Origin: an uncultured virus (IMG/VR IMGVR_UViG_641228477_000003) | Taxonomy: Duplodnaviria > Heunggongvirae > Uroviricota > Caudoviricetes | Length of the DNA stretch: 20,000 nucleotides | IMG/VR virus record: IMGVR_UViG_641228477_000003 | Coordinates: 44,978 to 64,977 of that record | Reading direction: 5' to 3' (one strand) | In this document: positions 1,178 through 19,160 of the stretch, piece by piece | How positions within the stretch are numbered: the stretch's first letter is position 1 | How the letters are laid out: every line of letters begins with the position of its first letter | Translations under genes and position numbers: made by a program | The notes under the pieces: generated by a model | The model's database searches: none | What the model was told of the DNA's origin: nothing | Seen by the model: only the letters and a program-made list of their open reading frames with translations

Positions 1178-1200
1178 GTACATACATAAGGGCATGAAGG
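1178..1200 (-). promoter_or_regulatory. Phage-specific promoter-like motif, copy 1
   Basis: Minus strand CCTTCATGCCCTTATGTATGTAC, directly after a terminator and upstream of the chaperone; matches four other intergenic copies. Confidence 0.65.
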
Positions 1201-1203
1201 CAT

Positions 1204-1235
1204 AAAAAAAGAGACTAGAGCCGAAGCCCTAGCCT
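1204..1235 (-). terminator. Intrinsic terminator after major tail gene
   Basis: GGCTAGGGC-TTCG-GCTCTAGTC-TCTTTTTTT (cUUCGg loop). Confidence 0.9.
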
Positions 1236-8100: not shown

Positions 8101-8652
8101 TTAGATTACCTCACCTTTGTAGTAAACCTTCTCTAGTTCGTTGATGCGAACGTCGAAGTTATATGCTTCTAGTGCTTCACGAGATTCTAGGAATGCGTGA
8201 CAAGACTCAGTTAGCATGATGTTCTTCGGTAAGTCCGTTTTGTCATCGAATAAGATAACAGGACGTTGAATTACGCTTGCGGCCCCTAGTTCCCAGTTCG
8301 TACCACTGTCAGTCGAGTGAACTGCGACAACGATATCACATGTTAGGATTTCTTTAACGTCGTTATTGTACGTGGCTTTTCGCCATTCAACCGAACCGAA
8401 TTCGAATTGTGGATTTTGATGCTCACGTGGTGAGAATACTTGCAACCCTTTCGCTCGTAACGTCTTTTCGACGAATTCTACTCGTTCGATTTCTTCGTCA
8501 TTGAAGAATGGGGATGCGAGGTAGACTTTCATTGGCTTTTTCGGTAATGGAAGTACTGTGCGAGTTACATGAGTCGTAACGATCTTGTCTGCTTCGATAC
8601 TTCCTACATTGATTGCCTTTGCTTTGATAGTTCCTGTTGTGATTTTACCCAT
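8101..8652 (-). CDS. Nucleoside 2-deoxyribosyltransferase / nucleotide N-glycosidase family protein
   Basis: KVYLASPFF, FSP, NDV..I..CDIVVA, DSGTNWELG (catalytic Glu) and NIML motifs; RBS AGGAGGT; about 40-aa N-terminal extension. Confidence 0.9.
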   Translation of the reverse strand: MGKITTGTIKAKAINVGSIEADKIVTTHVTRTVLPLPKKPMKVYLASPFFNDEEIERVEFVEKTLRAKGLQVFSPREHQNPQFEFGSVEWRKATYNNDVKEILTCDIVVAVHSTDSGTNWELGAASVIQRPVILFDDKTDLPKNIMLTESCHAFLESREALEAYNFDVRINELEKVYYKGEVI

Positions 8653-8695
8653 TGGTAAATACCTCCTAGTGTTTGTTTAATTGACCTATCCGTCC

Positions 8696-8715
8696 TACAC
8701 TTTCATAAGGGCAGG
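8696..8715 (-). promoter_or_regulatory. Phage-specific promoter-like motif, copy 2
   Basis: CCTGCCCTTATGAAAGTGTA, 20/20 identical to 19101-19120. Confidence 0.65.
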
Positions 8716-8732
8716 ACAGAATTTGAAAAGGT

Positions 8733-10493
8733 CTATAACCACAAAGGCTTGTCTCTCATTACTGCACGAGGTCGAGCGACATATTCGACGGACATTTGCA
8801 ACGCATCGACTGAATCGACGTAATCCCCGAATGGATATGCGTCCATCTGCTCTAGCAACGTCTTGTGGTGACGGTTGAATAGAAGAGTTTTGTTGACGCA
8901 ATACGGTTCGAGAGATTCGATACGCTGTTCCTTCGAAGACTTCTGTGCTTTGACGTCAATTACTTTCGTAGAATATAAGTGATGACGTGGTAGTTCTTCT
9001 TGTAGCTGACGATAGAATTCATGCTGTGCGTTGATAGTCTCAACGATTAGTAGATTCGGTCGGTAAGAAGAAACACGTTGAATAATACCTTGCATGAATT
9101 TATGTGGTGGCTCTTTGGTAGCGTATTCGTCCAGCACAAAAATACGCCCAGTTGCTTCATGGCGTCCAGTTGTAACTAACGCATTGTAGCAGGAGCGAGC
9201 GCTTTTACCCATTGCTATATCCCATGCCGAACTGATAGACATATCGGCAAGGTCATATCTCTCGCCTTCATATACGCAGTAGCGTTCGTCGGTAAGGGGG
9301 TCGTGCTGAATCGTGTAATATCCGAACTGATCGGTGAAGAAGTACTTCTCATCTTCCGAGAATGCTCGGTTTCGATACTCGGAATTGAAGGTCTTCGTTC
9401 CCATATTCGCTTTACGCTCCATTAACGCCTTATAAGTCCAGCGCCATTCCCATGCGGTTTCTACGCCGTCCATCATAGCAACTTCGTTTTTATCGTAGAA
9501 TGCTTCGTGTTCTTCACCATCTCCATGCAGATATAAATCGGTATATTCTTCCCACATTTGCGGATGATTCGGTTCACTTACAATCGCATCATAGAAACAG
9601 TGTTTGAAGTCACGGCGATTCAGAACGTGCGCCAATAGCCCAGTGGACGATACCATCGTGCCGACTAGGATTTGATTTGTGGTTTTAGAGCCGATTGGCA
9701 TTACTACGGCGTTAAACCAGTTAATTAACTTTTCACGTGCTTCTTTCGTTCCTTCGTTATTCGCTGATGATGGGTCATCGGTAATAACTGTAGTCGGACG
9801 TAATGCGCCATGACGCTTACCACGTAATTGCTTCCCTGACGATGATGCTTCGACAAGCTGGTTCTCTCTCGTAATGAAAGAACTCTCGTTATCTTTCTCA
9901 TTCGCCATTGGATTATCGTATAAGAGACATCCGAAGTCTTCTATTAACTTGCGATTATACTTTAATTGCTTATTACACCAGCTGACTAACTTCTTCGAAA
10001 GGTCGTCCGTTTCCGATATAATCAGAATGTATCTGTGCGATAATTGGCGGAATAATATGCCTTTTAGCGCATATGCATTCGAGAATATACCTGATTTCGA
10101 GTGACCACGAGGGGCTGCGATGCCTAAGTTCACGCCCTTACCTGCATCTACTTCGTCACATAATCCGAAGAATTCTTTATGTATTCCTGCCATTTCTTCA
10201 AGTGGTTGATGCTGTTCGCCGTCGTCTTGATTCTGAATGATGTTGTCTTCGTTATCAGGATTATGACCATCACTAAGATATTCCATCGTAAAGTATGCGT
10301 TATCCACTTCCGCACGATGTATGCGCTCTAAGCGAATTAATTCTTCCTTACTATTTAGTAATATTTCAATATGGTAGTCCGACGCATCACCTTGCTTATG
10401 TAGTTGCATAAGCGTGGCAAGGCGCTCTTTTACGAGCGCAATGCGTTCGGCACGTTCTTCACGATTGATAAACCGTTCGCCATTCCATGCCAT
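8733..10493 (-). CDS. terL: Terminase large subunit
   Basis: Walker A APRGHSKS, LRG.R, Walker B VITDD, VGT coupling motif, nuclease WDIAMG...DSVDA. Confidence 0.96.
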   Translation of the reverse strand: MAWNGERFINREERAERIALVKERLATLMQLHKQGDASDYHIEILLNSKEELIRLERIHRAEVDNAYFTMEYLSDGHNPDNEDNIIQNQDDGEQHQPLEEMAGIHKEFFGLCDEVDAGKGVNLGIAAPRGHSKSGIFSNAYALKGILFRQLSHRYILIISETDDLSKKLVSWCNKQLKYNRKLIEDFGCLLYDNPMANEKDNESSFITRENQLVEASSSGKQLRGKRHGALRPTTVITDDPSSANNEGTKEAREKLINWFNAVVMPIGSKTTNQILVGTMVSSTGLLAHVLNRRDFKHCFYDAIVSEPNHPQMWEEYTDLYLHGDGEEHEAFYDKNEVAMMDGVETAWEWRWTYKALMERKANMGTKTFNSEYRNRAFSEDEKYFFTDQFGYYTIQHDPLTDERYCVYEGERYDLADMSISSAWDIAMGKSARSCYNALVTTGRHEATGRIFVLDEYATKEPPHKFMQGIIQRVSSYRPNLLIVETINAQHEFYRQLQEELPRHHLYSTKVIDVKAQKSSKEQRIESLEPYCVNKTLLFNRHHKTLLEQMDAYPFGDYVDSVDALQMSVEYVARPRAVMRDKPLWL

Positions 10494-10504
10494 GCTTATT
10501 CCTC

Positions 10505-10927
10505 CTATTTCTTTAATAGTGCGTTGATTTCTGCGATTTCTTTCTCAAGATCGCTATTTGACTTCACGCCGTCAGCCGTATTGTCTTCGATGACTTTCTT
10601 ATCAGTAAGCAAGCCGTGTCTACGTAAGAACAGGTCGATACCTTTGATTGACGGTTGCGAACCGCTAATCGTACGCAGTAATTGACGATATACAAAATCA
10701 CGCTTTTCCGATAAAAACTCGTCAGCGATCATATTCTTGTAATCGATGAATGATTTGTTTTGCGTTCTCCATTTGTATAGGCACATGCGAGTGACGCCTA
10801 ATTCTTGCGCAATCTCTTCCTGTGTCTTACGTTCTCCCTCGATGTTGAGTTCGTTCTCTACCAGTAATAGAGCAGCTTCACGTTGTTTTAAGTTCAAGCG
10901 AGATTCTAATTCCTTCTTACTAGCCAT
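10505..10927 (-). CDS. terS: Terminase small subunit (phBC6A51-like helix-turn-helix protein)
   Basis: HTH KTQEEIAQELGVTRMCLYKWR; immediately upstream of terL; RBS AAAGGAG. Confidence 0.85.
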   Translation of the reverse strand: MASKKELESRLNLKQREAALLLVENELNIEGERKTQEEIAQELGVTRMCLYKWRTQNKSFIDYKNMIADEFLSEKRDFVYRQLLRTISGSQPSIKGIDLFLRRHGLLTDKKVIEDNTADGVKSNSDLEKEIAEINALLKK

Positions 10928-10960
10928 GCGTATCTCTCCTTTCGGTATAATAAAAAAGTG

Positions 10961-10989
10961 TTGCGATTCCGTACGTTCTCATTTATACT
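10961..10989 (+). promoter_or_regulatory. SigA-type promoter of the recombinase
   Basis: TTGCGA-N17-TATACT. Confidence 0.7.
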
Positions 10990-11039
10990 GAATGTAACAC
11001 AAACAGAAAAGAGATACATATGGAAGGTGGCAACACAAA

Positions 11040-11588
11040 ATGAATGAAGTTCAGCCAATTAGACTGAAGAAAGATATAAATAAAATGAAACGTGCCTTGC
11101 ACGGTCGTGATAGATTGATGTTTGTTTTGGGAATTAATTTAGGTCTTCGTATTTCCGATTTATTACAATTGAAGGTTTCTGATTTTTATGGTGAGAATAA
11201 CCGCTTCCTAAAACATGCGGTAGTTACCGAAGAGAAGACGGATAAGAATCGTAAGATGGCGATATCTGACGCAGTCAAGCGTGAAATCAAAGAAGCAGGA
11301 TTCACGCAATATAGCGAAGAATATCTATTTCCATCACGCAAAGGCGATAAGCCTATCGGACGTGTGCAAGCATACCGCATCCTAAATGCAGGGGCGGAAC
11401 GTGCAGGTATTACCGAAATCGGGACGCATACATTGCGTAAGACATTCGGATATCACGCATATAAGGCAGGTTCATCGATTCAAACGATTCAAAAACTACT
11501 GAATCATTCTAGCGAGAAGGATACGATTAAATACATCGGTATCAATCAAGATAATCTCGACGAAGTACATTTGACACTTTCGTTGTAA
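11040..11588 (+). CDS. Tyrosine recombinase, catalytic domain only (182 aa)
   Basis: Complete active site: GLRISDLL (R), EEKT (K), HTLRK (HxxR), LNH, KYIG (Y); no N-terminal arm- or core-binding domain. Confidence 0.93.
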   Translation: MNEVQPIRLKKDINKMKRALHGRDRLMFVLGINLGLRISDLLQLKVSDFYGENNRFLKHAVVTEEKTDKNRKMAISDAVKREIKEAGFTQYSEEYLFPSRKGDKPIGRVQAYRILNAGAERAGITEIGTHTLRKTFGYHAYKAGSSIQTIQKLLNHSSEKDTIKYIGINQDNLDEVHLTLSL

Positions 11589-11591
11589 TAG

Positions 11592-11626
11592 AAAAAGCGC
11601 TACCCGACGTGGGTGGCGCTCTTTTT
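11592..11626. terminator. Bidirectional intrinsic terminator after the recombinase
   Basis: AAAAA-GCGCTACCC-GACGT-GGGTGGCGC-TCTTTTT. Confidence 0.85.
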
Positions 11627-12123
11627 GCGTTTATTTCTCTTCATTCTATATACACGCCTGTATGCGATAGTTTTGTATACATTGTGTAAACTATTTAACG
11701 CAGATATAGATTCACGGCTTATCTGTCGGGGCATATACTGACCCATGAGCGGTCTACCTATCATGGCTCAACCACTCACTAACTAGAACCAAAGAATAAC
11801 TATAGCCAATATAAATATATTAGAGTCACTACGTTCCTCTAAGAAGATTTAACGCAGTAATATACATAATAAAGAGAGGGCGAGCCTTTAAAGATACGCT
11901 TAAACGTTATATAAAGACTGCGTAAGTATTTAAAAGAAGAAAGAAGAACGTTCTTAGTCGCCAATTTTATGCGCTGAATGTTTGCTGAAAAGTGCGCCAC
12001 TCATTTTAAGGCGTCTAGAAGGCGTCAGAAGACGTTTTAATCGATAGAGATATGATAGGTCTTCGAAAGGGGCTTAGTAAGCGTGATTACGCTACTTGCG
12101 TAATATAATCGGTAGATATGCGC

Positions 12124-12241
12124 TAGGATTAATTTAAGAGGGATATCGATAGGACTTCATGTGGATTTCGGTAGGCTTCGTACAAGATCGGTAGGACTGC
12201 GTAGGATTACATGTGGATTTCGTATAGGACTTCGTGTAGGA
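12124..12241. repeat. Phased short-repeat array (TAGGA/GTGGA units, about 11-bp period)
   Basis: Units start at 12150, 12161, 12172, 12192, 12202, 12213, 12225 and 12237; CATGTGGATTTCG occurs twice. Confidence 0.75.
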
Positions 12242-12278
12242 ATAACACCCTGAGTTGAAAATTGCGTGTACTTTTCGA

Positions 12279-12325
12279 GGGGGTTTGCTTCAGGGGGGTT
12301 GATGGGGTGGCTTGGGGGGTGGTGG
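12279..12325 (+). repeat. G-tract cluster (G5, G6, G4, G6)
   Basis: GGGGG-TTTGCTTCA-GGGGGG-TTGAT-GGGG-TGGCTT-GGGGGG-TGGTGG. Confidence 0.85.
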
Positions 12326-12381
12326 CATTTTGCGATTTGGGTGGACGGCTTGTTGAATATCGAATTCACTCGAATGAATAA

Positions 12382-12414
12382 CGAATGAAACAGAAGGACT
12401 TTGTGTTACTTTCG
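12382..12414. other. Candidate tyrosine-recombinase core site
   Basis: CGAATGAAACAGAA-GGACT-TTGTGTTACTTTCG (11/14 inverted match); the arm matches GAATGTAACACAA at 10990-11002. Confidence 0.55.
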
Positions 12415-13061
12415 ACAATCTCTTTTAAACGTTGATTTAACAATCTTCTTCGCACTTTCAACGAACATTCAATTCGAATAAAGTTTTATGCATTAAAAGA
12501 AACGTTGAGTTAATAACATTCTTCTTTCGCATTCGATTCGATTAAGATGAATAAGAAGTTGCATAAAGAAAGACACACGATTCTTTTAAACCCCTTGAGT
12601 TTCGAGTCGCTTCTCCACAGAAGTTCTCAGCTGATTAAATCAATCGAAGTTCTTCACGCATTCTTCTCGCACACACAACGATACTCACACTACTATTACT
12701 ATGCGTCATGCTACCGTATACCCACGTGGCTGTATCGTATATCAGTACGCCATACTACCTATATGTTAACGTGGTACAGTCTTGCGCTGGTATCTCGAAT
12801 ACATTTAGCGAAACCATTTCCGATTACATTTCCGTTGTAATCTACAGTAAACTATAACCGCTATTACTATGGCTACTATATACGTATGGTATATGCCCTA
12901 TGTTATAACAGGGCATTGCGATATGGTACTCGGCTATTGGTCATATGTACTGACGGCTTGGTATATATAGTACCGCCCTGTTATATATACAGTGTATGCG
13001 TTGGTAATATAGCGGTCATATACAGCCCTATGATCGGTAGTATATGCGCCTTGGTATTCGT

Positions 13062-13250
13062 ACATTTATGCGTACATTTATATAGTTTACATTGCGTCCT
13101 ATTAACGCTACATTTATCGACCTATTTATCGTATCATTTAGCTACATTTAACATATGTATATACTAATGCATAGCGTAATGATATATAAGAAATAGGAAG
13201 TATCTATCGTACATTTAGCGCCTATTTAACGCACATTTATCGGACATTTA
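13062..13250. repeat. Phased ACATTTA/CTATTTA repeat array
   Basis: ACATTTA at 13062, 13074, 13110, 13144, 13211, 13233 and 13244; variants at 13122, 13134 and 13222; neighbours mostly 10-12 bp apart. Confidence 0.8.
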
Positions 13251-13393
13251 ATCGCCTGTATATAGCGACATATTCGGTCTTCCTTAGACGACTAAAGGCG
13301 TATATATGTGTATAGTATAGCCGTATAATTTAAGTTATTTTTGGATAATATAGCAACATAAAGACACGCAAAAACACATCTGAAAAATAATTG

Positions 13394-13423
13394 TTGACAT
13401 GTTTTACGTATCAATGTTATACT
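13394..13423 (+). promoter_or_regulatory. Strong SigA promoter
   Basis: TTGACA-N18-TATACT with extended -10 TG and an A-rich upstream element. Confidence 0.85.
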
Positions 13424-13471
13424 AAGTATGTGCTTGAGAGAGTACAATACATCCGAAAGGAGGTATCGAAT

Positions 13472-13627
13472 ATGCAAGAAGTGTTAACATTCCTCTTCGA
13501 CAACTTACATAGTCCGATGTCATTCGTTATCATCTTCATGGTTTGCACTGAATTTGGTTTCAGCGTAAAACGTGTAAATGGTAAGATTGACTTCGAGATA
13601 ACAGTAAACTATCGATTCAGGAAGTAA
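13472..13627 (+). CDS. 51-aa hydrophobic micro-protein (candidate type I toxin)
   Basis: RBS AAAGGAGGT before ATG 13472; MQEVLTFLFDNLHSPMSFVIIFMVCTEFGF...YRFRK. Confidence 0.7.
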   Translation: MQEVLTFLFDNLHSPMSFVIIFMVCTEFGFSVKRVNGKIDFEITVNYRFRK

Positions 13628-13673
13628 ATAAGGTCATAGGGCGTGTTACAGCACGTCCTACCCTTTAACAAAT

Positions 13674-13703
13674 AGTATAACACTTCGACGCATATGAATA
13701 CAA
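13674..13703 (-). promoter_or_regulatory. Candidate antisense SigA promoter
   Basis: Minus strand TTGTAT-N18-TATACT with extended -10 TG, pointing into the 3' end of the 51-aa gene. Confidence 0.55.
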
Positions 13704-13873
13704 TTATGAGCGATAAAAATAAAGTTAGATACCTATTGATGACGGCGCTGGTGTTTTTACTGATAACGAGGATTATCGGCAATCCCATCGCAGGAGGACT
13801 CGCAGTTGTATTTGCTATAGCTGTAGCCTGTGCAGTCTTCACGGAACGAATCGGAAGAAAGCGAAGACAGTAG
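13694..13873 (+). CDS. 59-aa two-helix membrane micro-protein
   Basis: Hand-translated MNTIMSDKNKVRYLLMTALVFLLITRIIGNPIAGGLAVVFAIAVACAVFTERIGRKRRQ; no clear RBS. Confidence 0.55.
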   Translation: MNTIMSDKNKVRYLLMTALVFLLITRIIGNPIAGGLAVVFAIAVACAVFTERIGRKRRQ

Positions 13874-13899
13874 TCTCATCGTACTCTTTCGAGCATAAT

Positions 13900-13938
13900 A
13901 AAAAGCGGTACACGTTAATTCGTGTCCGCTTCTTTTTT
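13900..13938. terminator. Bidirectional terminator between convergent units
   Basis: AAAAAGCGGTACACG-TTAATT-CGTGTCCGCTTCTTTTTT. Confidence 0.85.
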
Positions 13939-14186
13939 TATTTCGGCATCTTCTTCATAATCAGGTAGTTTCGTACGATGAGTCCGTGGTCTTTATGAAT
14001 CTCCTGCAACAACGCACCAGCAGTAAATACCCTATCGTGCCAATACGAATAATAGCCGTCCGCCCTCATAAGAAATACACGACCGTTTATCGGATTCAGG
14101 CGTACGTCATACGTATGTGTAGCACGTCCGAACATCCATTGAATGGCGACTCTATCGCCTACCTCTAGTGTAATTGGTCTAGCCAT
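13938..14186 (-). CDS. Hypothetical protein, paralog family A
   Basis: 82 aa, coupled start, LEVGDRVAIQW...GRVFL. Confidence 0.8.
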   Translation of the reverse strand: MARPITLEVGDRVAIQWMFGRATHTYDVRLNPINGRVFLMRADGYYSYWHDRVFTAGALLQEIHKDHGLIVRNYLIMKKMPK

Positions 14187-14455
14187 TATATATCGCTTCC
14201 TTTCGGATAGATTACATATGATTCGACAATAGGCATGTCGCCCATCATATCGCCTTTAATCATGTCCAGCAGGTCAATCGTATTCATGAGAACAGGACGA
14301 CGATACGCATATCTATTTGTACCCTTCCTACGCAAGAATACTCGACCATCTTCGCCTTGTACTACGAAGTATGTGTGTTTCTCGAATGTATGCCATGTGA
14401 TGTCGATAGTATCATCGATGTACAGGCGCTCAATCGTTTCGCCTAGATTACCCAT
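14186..14455 (-). CDS. Hypothetical protein, paralog family A
   Basis: 89 aa, LYIDDTIDITW...GRVFL. Confidence 0.8.
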   Translation of the reverse strand: MGNLGETIERLYIDDTIDITWHTFEKHTYFVVQGEDGRVFLRRKGTNRYAYRRPVLMNTIDLLDMIKGDMMGDMPIVESYVIYPKGSDI

Positions 14456-14546
14456 GATTACGACCGCCCTTCACATATTTATAGATATCTCTCGCAACCC
14501 GACAGACGAGAACCGTAACAATAACAACGCCAATATTAACCGCCAT
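14448..14546 (-). CDS. 32-aa single-helix membrane peptide (not in ORF track)
   Basis: RBS GGAGG 9 nt upstream; MAVNIGVVIVTVLVCRVARDIYKYVKGGRNHG; fills the gap between two genes. Confidence 0.6.
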   Translation of the reverse strand: MAVNIGVVIVTVLVCRVARDIYKYVKGGRNHG

Positions 14547-14547
14547 T

Positions 14548-14739
14548 CTATTCATCCTCCCCATACAAATACTTATTCGCATTGTGGTAAGAGTCCGTAT
14601 CATAAGCGTGACAATTGTCCATCGTACTCATACAGTCCTGAAGTAAGTCCGTTAATATATCAACCTTCGCAGTCAGTTCGTTATTGTCTTCGACTAGCTT
14701 TTCGATTCGTTCTTCGTATGCATGTGTAATGCTACCCAT
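14548..14739 (-). CDS. Hypothetical short coiled-coil protein (63 aa)
   Basis: TAATG-coupled start at 14739; heptad pattern YEERIEKLVEDNNELTAKVDIL. Confidence 0.75.
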   Translation of the reverse strand: MGSITHAYEERIEKLVEDNNELTAKVDILTDLLQDCMSTMDNCHAYDTDSYHNANKYLYGEDE

Positions 14740-15047
14740 TATTTCGCCACCGCCTTTCGTCGTATCACCATTTCCCATTCGGCTTGTGCCAGTACTACGT
14801 AATGCTCTATCGTAGAGTGGTCAGCGATTGCCTTCAATAATCCGTGCAATGTTCTCCCCTTACTCTTAAAAGCGTAATTCGAACCGTTGACGCAAGCTAA
14901 GAAAACATCATCAACACGTGCGCCCATTTCAGCACTTTCCTGTACGAGATACAATTCGTAATCCTTTCGTCCAGTCCACAAGATCGCTACGAAGTCACCG
15001 ACTCTCAGGTTCGTTGGCTTCGCTAATCCTTCGACAGTTGCCATCAT
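14739..15047 (-). CDS. Hypothetical protein, paralog family A
   Basis: TAATG-coupled start at 15047; LRVGDFVAILW...DVFL. Confidence 0.8.
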   Translation of the reverse strand: MMATVEGLAKPTNLRVGDFVAILWTGRKDYELYLVQESAEMGARVDDVFLACVNGSNYAFKSKGRTLHGLLKAIADHSTIEHYVVLAQAEWEMVIRRKAVAK

Positions 15048-15346
15048 TATTGACCGCCACCCTTTCGCTCCATTTTCAGCTTCCAAAACTCTTTCGAATA
15101 CAACGTGTATGACTCTAGTAAATCAGCTTCGTGACGCAATGCGTTAATCAAATCGACAATACGAGCGTCGGATTGTTGCAAGAATGAATATCCTACGCCA
15201 TCAATACCCATTAAACATAAGCGATTACCCACTGGCGTCTTTATAATCAAGTACACTTTAGGCGTCTTTTCGCCTTTCCACTGGATTTCTACAACGTCAC
15301 CAAGACCGTATTCTCTCGTTAATTCCTTTGAAATTTCTATTTCCAT
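15047..15346 (-). CDS. Hypothetical protein, paralog family A
   Basis: 99 aa, RBS AAGGGAG, YGLGDVVEIQW...NRLCL. Confidence 0.8.
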   Translation of the reverse strand: MEIEISKELTREYGLGDVVEIQWKGEKTPKVYLIIKTPVGNRLCLMGIDGVGYSFLQQSDARIVDLINALRHEADLLESYTLYSKEFWKLKMERKGGGQ

Positions 15347-15370
15347 ATTTATCGCTCCCTTATCGCTATT

Positions 15371-15392
15371 TACACATACATAAGGACGCAGG
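15371..15392 (-). promoter_or_regulatory. Phage-specific promoter-like motif, copy 3
   Basis: CCTGCGTCCTTATGTATGTGTA after a terminator. Confidence 0.6.
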
Positions 15393-15400
15393 ACACGACG

Positions 15401-15431
15401 AAAAGAGCGAATACTAAATGTATCCGCCCTC
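15401..15431 (-). terminator. Intrinsic terminator after MTase gene
   Basis: GAGGGCGGATAC-ATTTA-GTATTCGCTCTTTT. Confidence 0.75.
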
Positions 15432-16748
15432 GATAATCTTATCCATCAACGCACTAATGACATTCACCGTCACCGCATTGCCAGCCGTCTTATATAATTG
15501 TGCGTTTGATATGCCGTTTTCGTGTAGCAGCTCATGTATCTCATCTCTAAATCCCTGTAGCCTGAAACACTCTTTCGGCGTGATTTTCCGCACTTTCCAT
15601 TCATGCGTAAGTGTAACGAGATAGTTCGTAGTCTCTAGCGTATGACAAACGCCATGACCGACTCGACCACGCCTTGTCTTACTCGAAGGGAATTTGATAT
15701 TTATCGAATCACCTACACCAGCGACCGCATATCCCTTCTTCGTAGCTTCGAGAACAGCAACCTTCGGCTCTTGATTTCCACCTTGCATCGTAGTCAGCGC
15801 AGGAGAAACACCATTCGGTGAATACACACGTTTCAGGATATCGTGTCCTTTTACGTCAATTCGTCCGATACAGTCTGTTTCTAACTTTCCGACCATATCA
15901 GGCAGTCCATTTGCATCGAGCATCTTCAATATCTCGGCTGATGCGTCCTCTTTGATGTAGAATCTCTTATCTACACTTTCTTCGAGTATATCAATCAGCG
16001 ATACATTGACATCTTCTTGCGCAGGGAAGTCGAAGTTAAACGACTGTACGCCTAAATTCAATAGATTTCGCTTGCAGTTTGCAACCACATTCTTTCCTTT
16101 GATGCGCCATTCTTCGGACTGTACTAAATCCTTTCGTACACATACGACGAATATACGCTCCCTATTTTGGGCTACATCGAAGTACTTCGAATTGATGCTT
16201 TCGAAATCAATCACGTAGCCGATCTTGTTCATTGTTTCCGCAATCACTCGCATCGTTTCACCTTTTGCTGAAGAAATGAGTCCTTTTACATTCTCCATTA
16301 ATACTACCTTTGGTTGCGCATATTCAGCTACACGTGCCACCTCGTAGAATAGCATTCCACGTATATCCTTCGGCTTCGCTTCGTCACAACATTCGGTGCA
16401 TCTTACGTTACGCATCTTGTATCGTTCGAAGTCAATTACAAACTCATGCTTACATCGTGGATTGATGCATTTGTACATCATGCCATCTCTACCGCCAGCT
16501 ACTGAAAACGTAGGGCAGGGAAAGCCAGCAGTCAGGATATCGTGTCTCGGTACGTCCATTGATCGCACTTTCGTGATATCACCCACCGTCTTCTTTCCGT
16601 AAATCAATTCGTACGCTGTGTTTGCGTATTTATCGACTTCTGACGCCATAACGCAAATACCGCCTTTTCCATTCAGTGCTTGTTCGAAGCCACCGATTCC
16701 TGAAAAAAGCGATACATATTTAAACCATATATTACCCTCACTTCCCAT
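15414..16748 (-). CDS. DNA (cytosine-5)-methyltransferase
   Basis: Motifs I FSGIGG, IV GFPC, VI ENVKG, VIII QNRER, IX R..TPKECFRLQGF and X YK.AGNAV; start moved to ATG 16748 behind GAAAGGGTGG. Confidence 0.96.
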   Translation of the reverse strand: MGSEGNIWFKYVSLFSGIGGFEQALNGKGGICVMASEVDKYANTAYELIYGKKTVGDITKVRSMDVPRHDILTAGFPCPTFSVAGGRDGMMYKCINPRCKHEFVIDFERYKMRNVRCTECCDEAKPKDIRGMLFYEVARVAEYAQPKVVLMENVKGLISSAKGETMRVIAETMNKIGYVIDFESINSKYFDVAQNRERIFVVCVRKDLVQSEEWRIKGKNVVANCKRNLLNLGVQSFNFDFPAQEDVNVSLIDILEESVDKRFYIKEDASAEILKMLDANGLPDMVGKLETDCIGRIDVKGHDILKRVYSPNGVSPALTTMQGGNQEPKVAVLEATKKGYAVAGVGDSINIKFPSSKTRRGRVGHGVCHTLETTNYLVTLTHEWKVRKITPKECFRLQGFRDEIHELLHENGISNAQLYKTAGNAVTVNVISALMDKIIEGGYI

Positions 16749-16769: not shown

Positions 16770-16792
16770 GGTACGTACATAAGGGCGTGAAG
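16770..16792 (-). promoter_or_regulatory. Phage-specific promoter-like motif, copy 4
   Basis: CTTCACGCCCTTATGTACGTACC; 16771-16806 matches 1178-1213 at 33/36 nt. Confidence 0.65.
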
Positions 16793-16796
16793 ACAT

Positions 16797-16829
16797 AAAA
16801 AAAGAGCGACCGCTTATGCGACCGCCTTT
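16797..16829 (-). terminator. Intrinsic terminator after GIY-YIG gene
   Basis: GGCGGTCGC-ATAA-GCGGTCGCT-CTTTTTTT (G-U rich stem). Confidence 0.75.
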
Positions 16830-18694: not shown

Positions 18695-19075
18695 CTATTT
18701 CACCGCCATTTCGTCGAGAACGCCGATAACGTTCTTTAAGTCATTCGTGAAGTCTGTGAATGTTTTTAAGCCCATAATCATCGCATGTAATGGCTCATTA
18801 GGCATTTTAATACCGATACCTACGTCGCCATCTGAATGATACGTCTTAATGTGTTTCTTTTCGCCAGCCTTGAATTTAGTGTCTGAAGTACCTTTATTGC
18901 GGTGAATCTCAAGTGAATTCAACAACTCTTTCGGTTGCTTGATTTCGGCTGTAACCATTGGTCTACCACCCATTGAAATCGTGAGATACGCCTTCTCGTC
19001 GTGCGCCACACATACCGACATAGTGTCGCCTGATACCCTAACGCATTCGATGTTTTTACCTGTGTACTTATTCAT
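18695..19075 (-). CDS. Hypothetical protein, paralog family B
   Basis: 126 aa, ends EMAVK, RBS AAGGGAG. Confidence 0.8.
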   Translation of the reverse strand: MNKYTGKNIECVRVSGDTMSVCVAHDEKAYLTISMGGRPMVTAEIKQPKELLNSLEIHRNKGTSDTKFKAGEKKHIKTYHSDGDVGIGIKMPNEPLHAMIMGLKTFTDFTNDLKNVIGVLDEMAVK

Positions 19076-19100
19076 TGTTCATCGCTCCCTTTTCGTTATT

Positions 19101-19120
19101 TACACTTTCATAAGGGCAGG
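19101..19120 (-). promoter_or_regulatory. Phage-specific promoter-like motif, copy 5
   Basis: CCTGCCCTTATGAAAGTGTA after a terminator. Confidence 0.65.
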
Positions 19121-19127
19121 TGAACGC

Positions 19128-19160
19128 AAAAAAAGAGCGATGCCTATGCAATCGCCCTCG
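19128..19160 (-). terminator. Intrinsic terminator
   Basis: GAGGGCGATTGC-ATAG-GCATCGCTC-TTTTTTT. Confidence 0.8.

Follow-up and report, generated by a model that had tools for sequence, protein, structure and literature searches.

Several described systems recall the locus reported here. Cre/loxP of phage P1 likewise consists of one tyrosine recombinase and a dyad site, which in that plasmid prophage is close to the packaging region, and it serves P1 in both circularisation and dimer resolution. The two differ in that P1 packs its DNA by headful, whereas a short fixed terminal repeat is predicted here; that Cre has ~320 residues in solved chains, against 182 for the recombinase of this locus; and that the present system, unlike Cre/loxP of P1, has a site with five free central bases and also occurs in integrating phages. 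P1 is listed with Cre in Table 1 of a published survey (PMC8026635). The TnpI/IRS system of Tn4430, like the present one, combines a Bacillus tyrosine resolvase with 14-bp inverted motifs; TnpI makes 6-bp staggered cuts and has adjacent accessory repeats, DR1-DR2 (PMC2847244), and TnpI of Tn5401 modulates its own promoter via the res site (PMC7157771). Compared with TnpI, the core of the distal site described below is one base shorter (a 6-bp sister clade has the TnpI spacing), operator and crossover site lie 1.4 kb apart, and there is no transposase match among the scanned ORFs of the window.

XerC/XerD, XerS, and XerA share the catalytic fold and residues of the recombinase, and dif is likewise a dyad with a free centre, but dif has 11-bp arms and a 6-bp centre (11-6-11; PMC5357621) where the present site has 14-bp arms and a 5-bp centre. 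Unlike Xer proteins, the recombinase has no N-terminal (core-binding) domain, and it falls far short of the curated Xer cut-offs (86 vs 220 bits for XerA; 71 vs 330 bits for XerD). FimB/FimE-type invertases are short too (models of 198-200 positions), and we know of no core-binding domain in them, but the recombinase scores 51 and 42 bits against their cut-offs of 222 and 221, and there is no invertible segment here. A precedent for a 5-bp crossover region is the Tn1549 integrase, which accepts 5-7 nt (PMC5871717); unlike the present enzyme, that transposase has three domains and cannot melt the crossover region without its core-binding domain, and it is not a close relative. We infer that the module functions like Cre/loxP; it falls outside the Xer, TnpI, and Fim families. 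The literature searched, with most subscription papers and supplements outside its coverage, yielded no description of the site, its place in a terminal repeat, or the satellites discussed below, and the available parts of PMC8138268, PMC9703825, PMC7157771, and PMC4293149 contain no account of the recombinase-site system.

The DNA analysed here (the window) is a stretch of 20,000 nucleotides, the final 20 kb of a virus record that is 64,977 bp long. Over the stretches queried, the record is identical to a public Bacillus mycoides plasmid record, NC_010182.1. Its close relatives AP022646 pBwiPL1-3, plasmid p2, and pBWB403 have been listed as putative plasmid prophages, an untested grouping, and members of that group are described as having a ParM-like gene and one Xer-like recombinase, proposed to be XerS-like, with no site described in the portions available (PMC8026635). 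An actin-like partition gene is present in the virus record as well. The features that matter for the argument are the following, in window coordinates:

8733..10493, minus strand: terminase large subunit gene terL (phrog_38), of a family used by Bacillota phages with short direct terminal repeats (DTRs)
10505..10927, minus strand: terminase small subunit gene terS (phrog_7344, E 8e-48)
10961..10989, plus strand: predicted sigma-A promoter of the recombinase gene (-35 at 10961-10966, -10 at 10984-10989; 9/12 consensus)
10989..11022, plus strand: predicted operator, with a strong arm (10989-11002) that covers the +1, then 6 bp and a weak arm (11009-11022)
11040..11588, plus strand: tyrosine recombinase, 182 aa, catalytic domain only (PF00589; R37, K66/K69, H130, R133, H156, Y165)
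11596..11620, plus strand: intrinsic terminator-like hairpin 3' of the recombinase gene (11-pair stem and T run)
12248..12256, no strand assigned: inner of the two copies of a short direct repeat, kept in close relatives and candidate satellites, from which the inner end of the terminal repeat is predicted
12287..12631, no strand assigned: predicted direct terminal repeat, ~345 bp, placed from the mapped ends of 268TH002 and Lietuvens
12382..12414, no strand assigned: predicted crossover site (arm 12382-12395, asymmetric spacer GGACT 12396-12400, arm 12401-12414)

The best isolate matches of terL are PK2, KLEB27-1, the Halcyoneviruses, phi18-2, 268TH002, and Lietuvens; a blastn search of window positions 8500-16000 against phage isolates gave no match.

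The first-pass annotation of this DNA had described a catalytic-only recombinase of 182 aa divergent from terS, which is what the ORF encodes, and all the sequences that it quoted are present where it had placed them. The protein is a member of the tyrosine recombinase superfamily, as judged from a catalytic domain with R-K-H-R-H/W and a Tyr nucleophile: it scores 86.5 bits against PF00589 (cut-off 27.1), and R37, K66, K69, R133, H156, and Y165 show no variation among 93 sequences, in which H130 is nearly constant (92 of the 120 matches listed were aligned). PF00589 is the sole domain match in 93/93 aligned homologs, and longer fused forms account for 4 matches among 568 candidates, weak evidence that there is no regular fused partner. 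A structure model (pLDDT 91) presents a bare catalytic domain that keeps a C-terminal helix (168-179) and whose fold matches the catalytic domains of IntI4, XerA, P2 integrase, and HP1 integrase. This protein is the single PF00589 match in the whole record and the sole recombinase found; profile searches of this one genome gave 0 matches to the split core-binding domain PF02899 and 0 to the serine resolvase family PF00239. A scan of 22 ORFs of the window gave no match to a repressor or excisionase family except for a weak HTH in terS, in keeping with the earlier remark that none lies nearby. The recombinase family itself is common, with relatives in 270 phage records and 3,028 plasmid records; what is new is the sites and their position.

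The distal dyad, said in the annotation to lie about 800 bp downstream of the gene, begins 794 bp past the stop codon, and the arm that it was said to share with the promoter dyad is indeed common to both (the genome has 3 copies of the 10-mer that they share). Scored with a matrix built from 13 half-sites in relatives' arms, in which spacing is not encoded, it is the top dyad of the 64,977-bp record (23.4 bits; the third-best scores 16.1), and 0/40 simulated genomes reach that value. Both dyads recur beside homologs. For the distal one, we surveyed 237 loci (134 clusters at 85% identity) and took the best non-promoter dyad above 15 bits. The spacing between core decamers was 13 in 41/134 clusters, 14 in 12, and another value in 11, with no dyad in 70; of 670 shuffles, 80 passed the 15-bit threshold, 5 of them at spacing 13. 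The 41 spacing-13 sites have 14-bp arms with the consensus CGAATGTAAC-ANAA, and their five central positions carry 0.05-0.33 bits. With 14-bp arms flanking five free bases, the distal dyad looks, from its sequence, like a crossover site. It lies 0.7-3.2 kb downstream of the gene in 22/37 terminase-adjacent clusters, nearly always with the same flanking motifs; one of the 22 (L200) is without terminal context and may be a chance match. The other 15/37, some with short loci, have no downstream 5-bp-spacer site at the threshold.

On a protein tree of 46 enzymes (36 with a 5-bp spacer and 10 with a 6-bp spacer; only sites scoring 17 bits or more were used, a distant one was left out, and PK2 was classed by its far-end site), spacer class changes once (support 100/98), in a count that ignores kinship; a single change is one event, which indicates that site and enzyme belong together and does not amount to repeated co-evolution. 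The two classes are separated by residues at 140-145 and 176-180, in helices whose counterparts provide the contacts between subunits of Cre and of lambda integrase. At the distal site, the stagger may instead be 7 bp, with the outer bases conserved. The centres of dif sites are normally 6-8 bp (PMC5357621), above the 5 bp of the distal site.

The promoter dyad has another character. As the annotation had it, an arm covers the predicted +1 of the recombinase gene and is followed, after 6 bp, by a degenerate arm. At 20.7 bits it is the genome's second-best dyad, and 1/40 simulated genomes reach that score; being modestly above chance by itself, it draws its support from positional conservation. 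A promoter half-site occurs at -75 to -20 in 27/37 terminase-adjacent clusters vs 0/148 control windows, mostly beginning at the last base of the -10, with a partner arm that is often weak and a spacing between core decamers that varies from 11 to 20 (17 clusters). The promoter call likewise rests on conservation in relatives, since a scan of the DNA found 11 such sites against 11.9 in shuffles; relatives have promoters at the same place that are nearer consensus. With its first arm fixed at the -10 and its spacing variable, the promoter dyad looks like an operator, and the autoregulation proposed earlier fits this comparative evidence. So does the expectation that the two sites would not recombine with each other: the spacers differ in 17/17 clusters with both dyads.

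The place of the distal dyad becomes clearer from isolates with mapped ends. In the closest isolates, the recombinase gene is divergent from terL and near the genome start, and the divergent arrangement holds in 37/37 terminase-adjacent clusters. The exact 310-bp terminal repeat of 268TH002 and the 437-bp repeat of Lietuvens each contain the site, which is hence present at both ends, and phi18-2 has a 309-bp terminal repeat with the site inside. In 268TH007, for which a 310-bp repeat was reported (PMC9476937), the site is at 204-236. This makes 4/4 isolates with mapped ends, from two lineages, in which the site is within the terminal repeat; the Cre/loxP-like trait of a site duplicated at both virion ends is thus found in 4/4 relatives and is predicted for this genome, where a distal site inside the repeat would be matched by an identical copy at the opposite end of the genome. 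The ends of the present genome are placed by a short-repeat-to-end offset taken from mapped junctions. The mapped outer junction of 268TH002 is GC|TGAT, and the same letters stand at window position 12631, at a 35-nt offset from the short repeat that is equal in three relatives (L007, L084, and L088); from the twin of the short repeat, 345 bp away, the inner end is expected near 12287. The outer end is better supported, and the inner end is uncertain by about 20 bp. Three contig sets have flat depth, and contigs cannot show genome ends. Among other isolates, gene and site are 2.4 kb apart in the KLEB27-1 record, which begins at terL; PK2 carries a site with a 6-bp spacer at 160-195 bp from the end of its record; and no dyad was found in GR1.

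Relatives of this element also integrate. A further full-length recombinase, mostly at the edge, was found in 10/11 provirus records that are at least 90% complete, and in 8/9 checked proviruses, which span three enzyme clusters, the site is whole 3' of the short gene with a full-length integrase at or near the edge. 268TH002 has a separate integrase, in place of which Lietuvens has an actin-like gene. Since integrating relatives keep the system, it is not limited to plasmid prophages, and since plasmid and integrating lifestyles both need a circle first, circularisation is favoured as the shared role.

Taken together, the recombinase and its site are a real, conserved module in the phage terminus. 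We think that it probably acts as a Cre/loxP-like system whose terminal copies recombine, circularising the injected DNA, and which would resolve multimers too. The annotation had already suggested a resolution or circularisation system tied to the packaging terminus, and the comparative evidence, with the site inside the repeat of every mapped isolate, is consistent with it. Terminase cuts would leave the ~345-bp repeat at both ends of the virion DNA, as is known in relatives, and with the 14-5-14 site within that repeat the linear genome would carry the site twice, in identical copies and in direct orientation. Once the DNA is injected, the gene, which lies no more than about 1.6 kb from one end, would be read from its host sigma-A promoter; four subunits would bring the sites together, and strand exchange in the middle 5 (perhaps 7) bp would produce a circle with one repeat. 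That circle would become a plasmid prophage here or, in relatives, the substrate for a separate integrase, and the same recombination would also resolve plasmid multimers. By binding the arm over its own +1, the enzyme would turn off its own expression, leaving packaging concatemers intact. Small elements that encode neither recombinase nor terminase would copy the terminal module and rely on the helper's enzymes.

How far the enzyme accompanies the terminase was asked from the terminase side. Of 128 loci chosen by their terminase, the 60 that had a near full-length match and 5 kb or more of upstream sequence were retained, forming 36 clusters. The site occurs in 7/10 clusters with the enzyme vs 1/26 without it (Fisher p 1e-4, kinship ignored, with a terminase alignment seeded mostly from enzyme-bearing loci); the lone enzyme-less cluster with a site is that of Mgbh1, which has a 16.9-bit 6-bp dyad. 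Close terminases (56-58%) are found both with and without the recombinase. The enzyme is absent from 26/36 terminase clusters, and the Halcyoneviruses, with repeats of 377-378 bp (PMC6070908), have no short recombinase in 3/3 records checked and no dyad within the first 3.5-4 kb; the system is therefore dispensable for some such phages.

That many relatives with DTRs manage without the enzyme suits an account in which it is a multimer resolvase only, in the manner of dif or res, while homologous recombination across the repeat circularises the DNA and the site is there for other reasons. The same account draws on the filing of the element as a putative plasmid prophage with a recombinase proposed to be XerS-like (PMC8026635), on the thousands of plasmid records with relatives, and on 23/97 non-terminase clusters, from Bacillota and Synergistota, in which the same dyad lies 120-320 bp upstream of the gene in a res-like layout (loci L026, L032, L034, L035, L037, L041, L089, L094, L097, L099, L111, L123, L124, L139, L154, L213, and L243 among them); most relatives away from this terminase have no dyad. 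It does not explain why integrating relatives keep enzyme and site, nor why the site tracks the terminal module rather than the gene, and we judge it rather unlikely. Resolution and circularisation being the same reaction, the two roles need not exclude each other.

A role without strand exchange is improbable in our estimate: the protein would be a DNA-binding or nicking helper of packaging or transcription, acting as a repressor at both dyads or marking or nicking the terminus. MrpR of SPbeta is reportedly a tyrosine recombinase fold that serves as a repressor, and a protein without a core-binding domain, in a genome with no separate PF02899, an unusual 5-bp spacer, and an operator-like site at its own promoter could all be read in the same way; candidate satellites could also retain the site as part of a packaging signal. 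Yet the catalytic residues are conserved throughout the aligned homologs, the C-terminal helix is kept, the site combines strict spacing with a free central sequence, and terminase relatives package without the enzyme.

A reading of the recombinase as the integrase and of the distal site as its attP draws on the database label ‘integrase’ and on the lack of a second recombinase match in this genome. In integrated relatives the site stays whole in mid-prophage while another full-length integrase sits at the edge, so that the distal site is not attP, and the record's group is deposited as plasmids; the annotation's view that this is not a chromosomal integrase fits these observations, and the attP reading is highly improbable. 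An inversion or deletion switch between the two dyads, suggested by arm sequence shared on either side of the gene and by the similar shortness of FimB/FimE-type invertases, is scarcely credible against differing spacers in every two-dyad cluster, an invariably divergent gene, and three DNA runs (contigs only) with no joint at either site.

The preferred account, in which the terminal sites recombine, extends to small plasmids that reside with larger relatives. A terminal module with the site is present in AP022647 (14.2 kb) and AP022648 (13.9 kb), from the strain of AP022646, and in NZ_CP040785 (two units of 16.6 kb), from the strain of NZ_CP040784; in the three small Bacillus plasmids, the module is at L086:6001-6340, L087:7949-8280, and L088:16331-16900. 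None of the three matches PF00589 or TerL, and among 30 ORFs scanned are genes for replication proteins and regulators and a capsid, tail, or tape-measure gene. The small plasmids could have been mere deletion copies of the helper, but we rejected this reading because they are 70-94% identical to it in patches and have replication genes of their own. Between NZ_CP040784 and NZ_CP040785, strong identity ends just past the predicted outer end, and the site differs at 3/5 spacer bases and 1/28 arm bases; AP022647 and AP022648 keep the helper's spacer, and likeness is lost before the outer motif. Misassembly would be another explanation, with which the 1.8 kb that two of the small plasmids share at 98.6% and the linear, two-unit record of the third would agree. 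We regard the three as candidate extrachromosomal satellites, whose packaging and helper dependence are predicted from their sequences.

A broader scheme is possible, and we offer it tentatively. The catalytic-only clade of ~180 aa would act alone on the 5-bp-spacer site of the terminal repeat as a dedicated circulariser of plasmid-type and integrating Bacillota phages, and satellites of 14-17 kb, without integrase or terminase and with a few virion genes each, would copy their helper's module so as to be cut, packaged, and re-circularised in trans; the changed spacer of one would stop its fusion with the helper.

In temperate phages with short terminal repeats, closure of the DNA after injection is, to our knowledge, usually assumed and not shown. 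A named site and enzyme make this question testable with one point mutant. The 268TH002 paper itself leaves open the role of its two recombinases (PMC9476937). At 182 aa, a stand-alone recombinase would be roughly half as large as Cre and, given its 33-bp site and the variety of natural spacers, would have appeal as a tool; the natural pair of 5-bp and 6-bp clades would show what sets spacer length; and the small plasmids of the same strains suggest a type of satellite not yet described.

Other observations concern the same proteins and DNA. A related short recombinase lies 3' of an ArpU regulator gene in many phages of the B. cereus group (phIS3501, BtCS33, phBC6A52, and others), and is also found in 128 Streptococcus phage records; these loci mostly have no dyad near the short recombinase. 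A 75-bp sequence occurs twice in the genome, inverted and at 95% identity (window 11742-11817, 3' of the recombinase gene, and genome 27231-27305, adjoining replication genes); the copy 3' of the recombinase gene folds no better than shuffles (z 0.41), and an Rfam search of window 10400-14100, which includes it, gave 0 matches. Beyond the predicted repeat, a near-consensus (11/12) extended -10 promoter at window 13394-13423 precedes two small plus-strand ORFs, with conservation in relatives and in one of the candidate satellites. A contig of 175 bp in run X3, with a depth of 896 (element ~120), matches 47 bp of the terminal module (window 12483-12529) and may come from a high-copy relative or satellite. 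An intergenic motif (repeat families D1 and D3) that may serve as a promoter or regulator site specific to the phage recurs 5' of minus-strand genes at window 1178-1213, 8697-8732, 15341-15385, 16771-16806, and 19071-19137. Between terL and the portal gene, as in three close relatives, lies a nucleoside 2-deoxyribosyltransferase gene (window 8101-8652).
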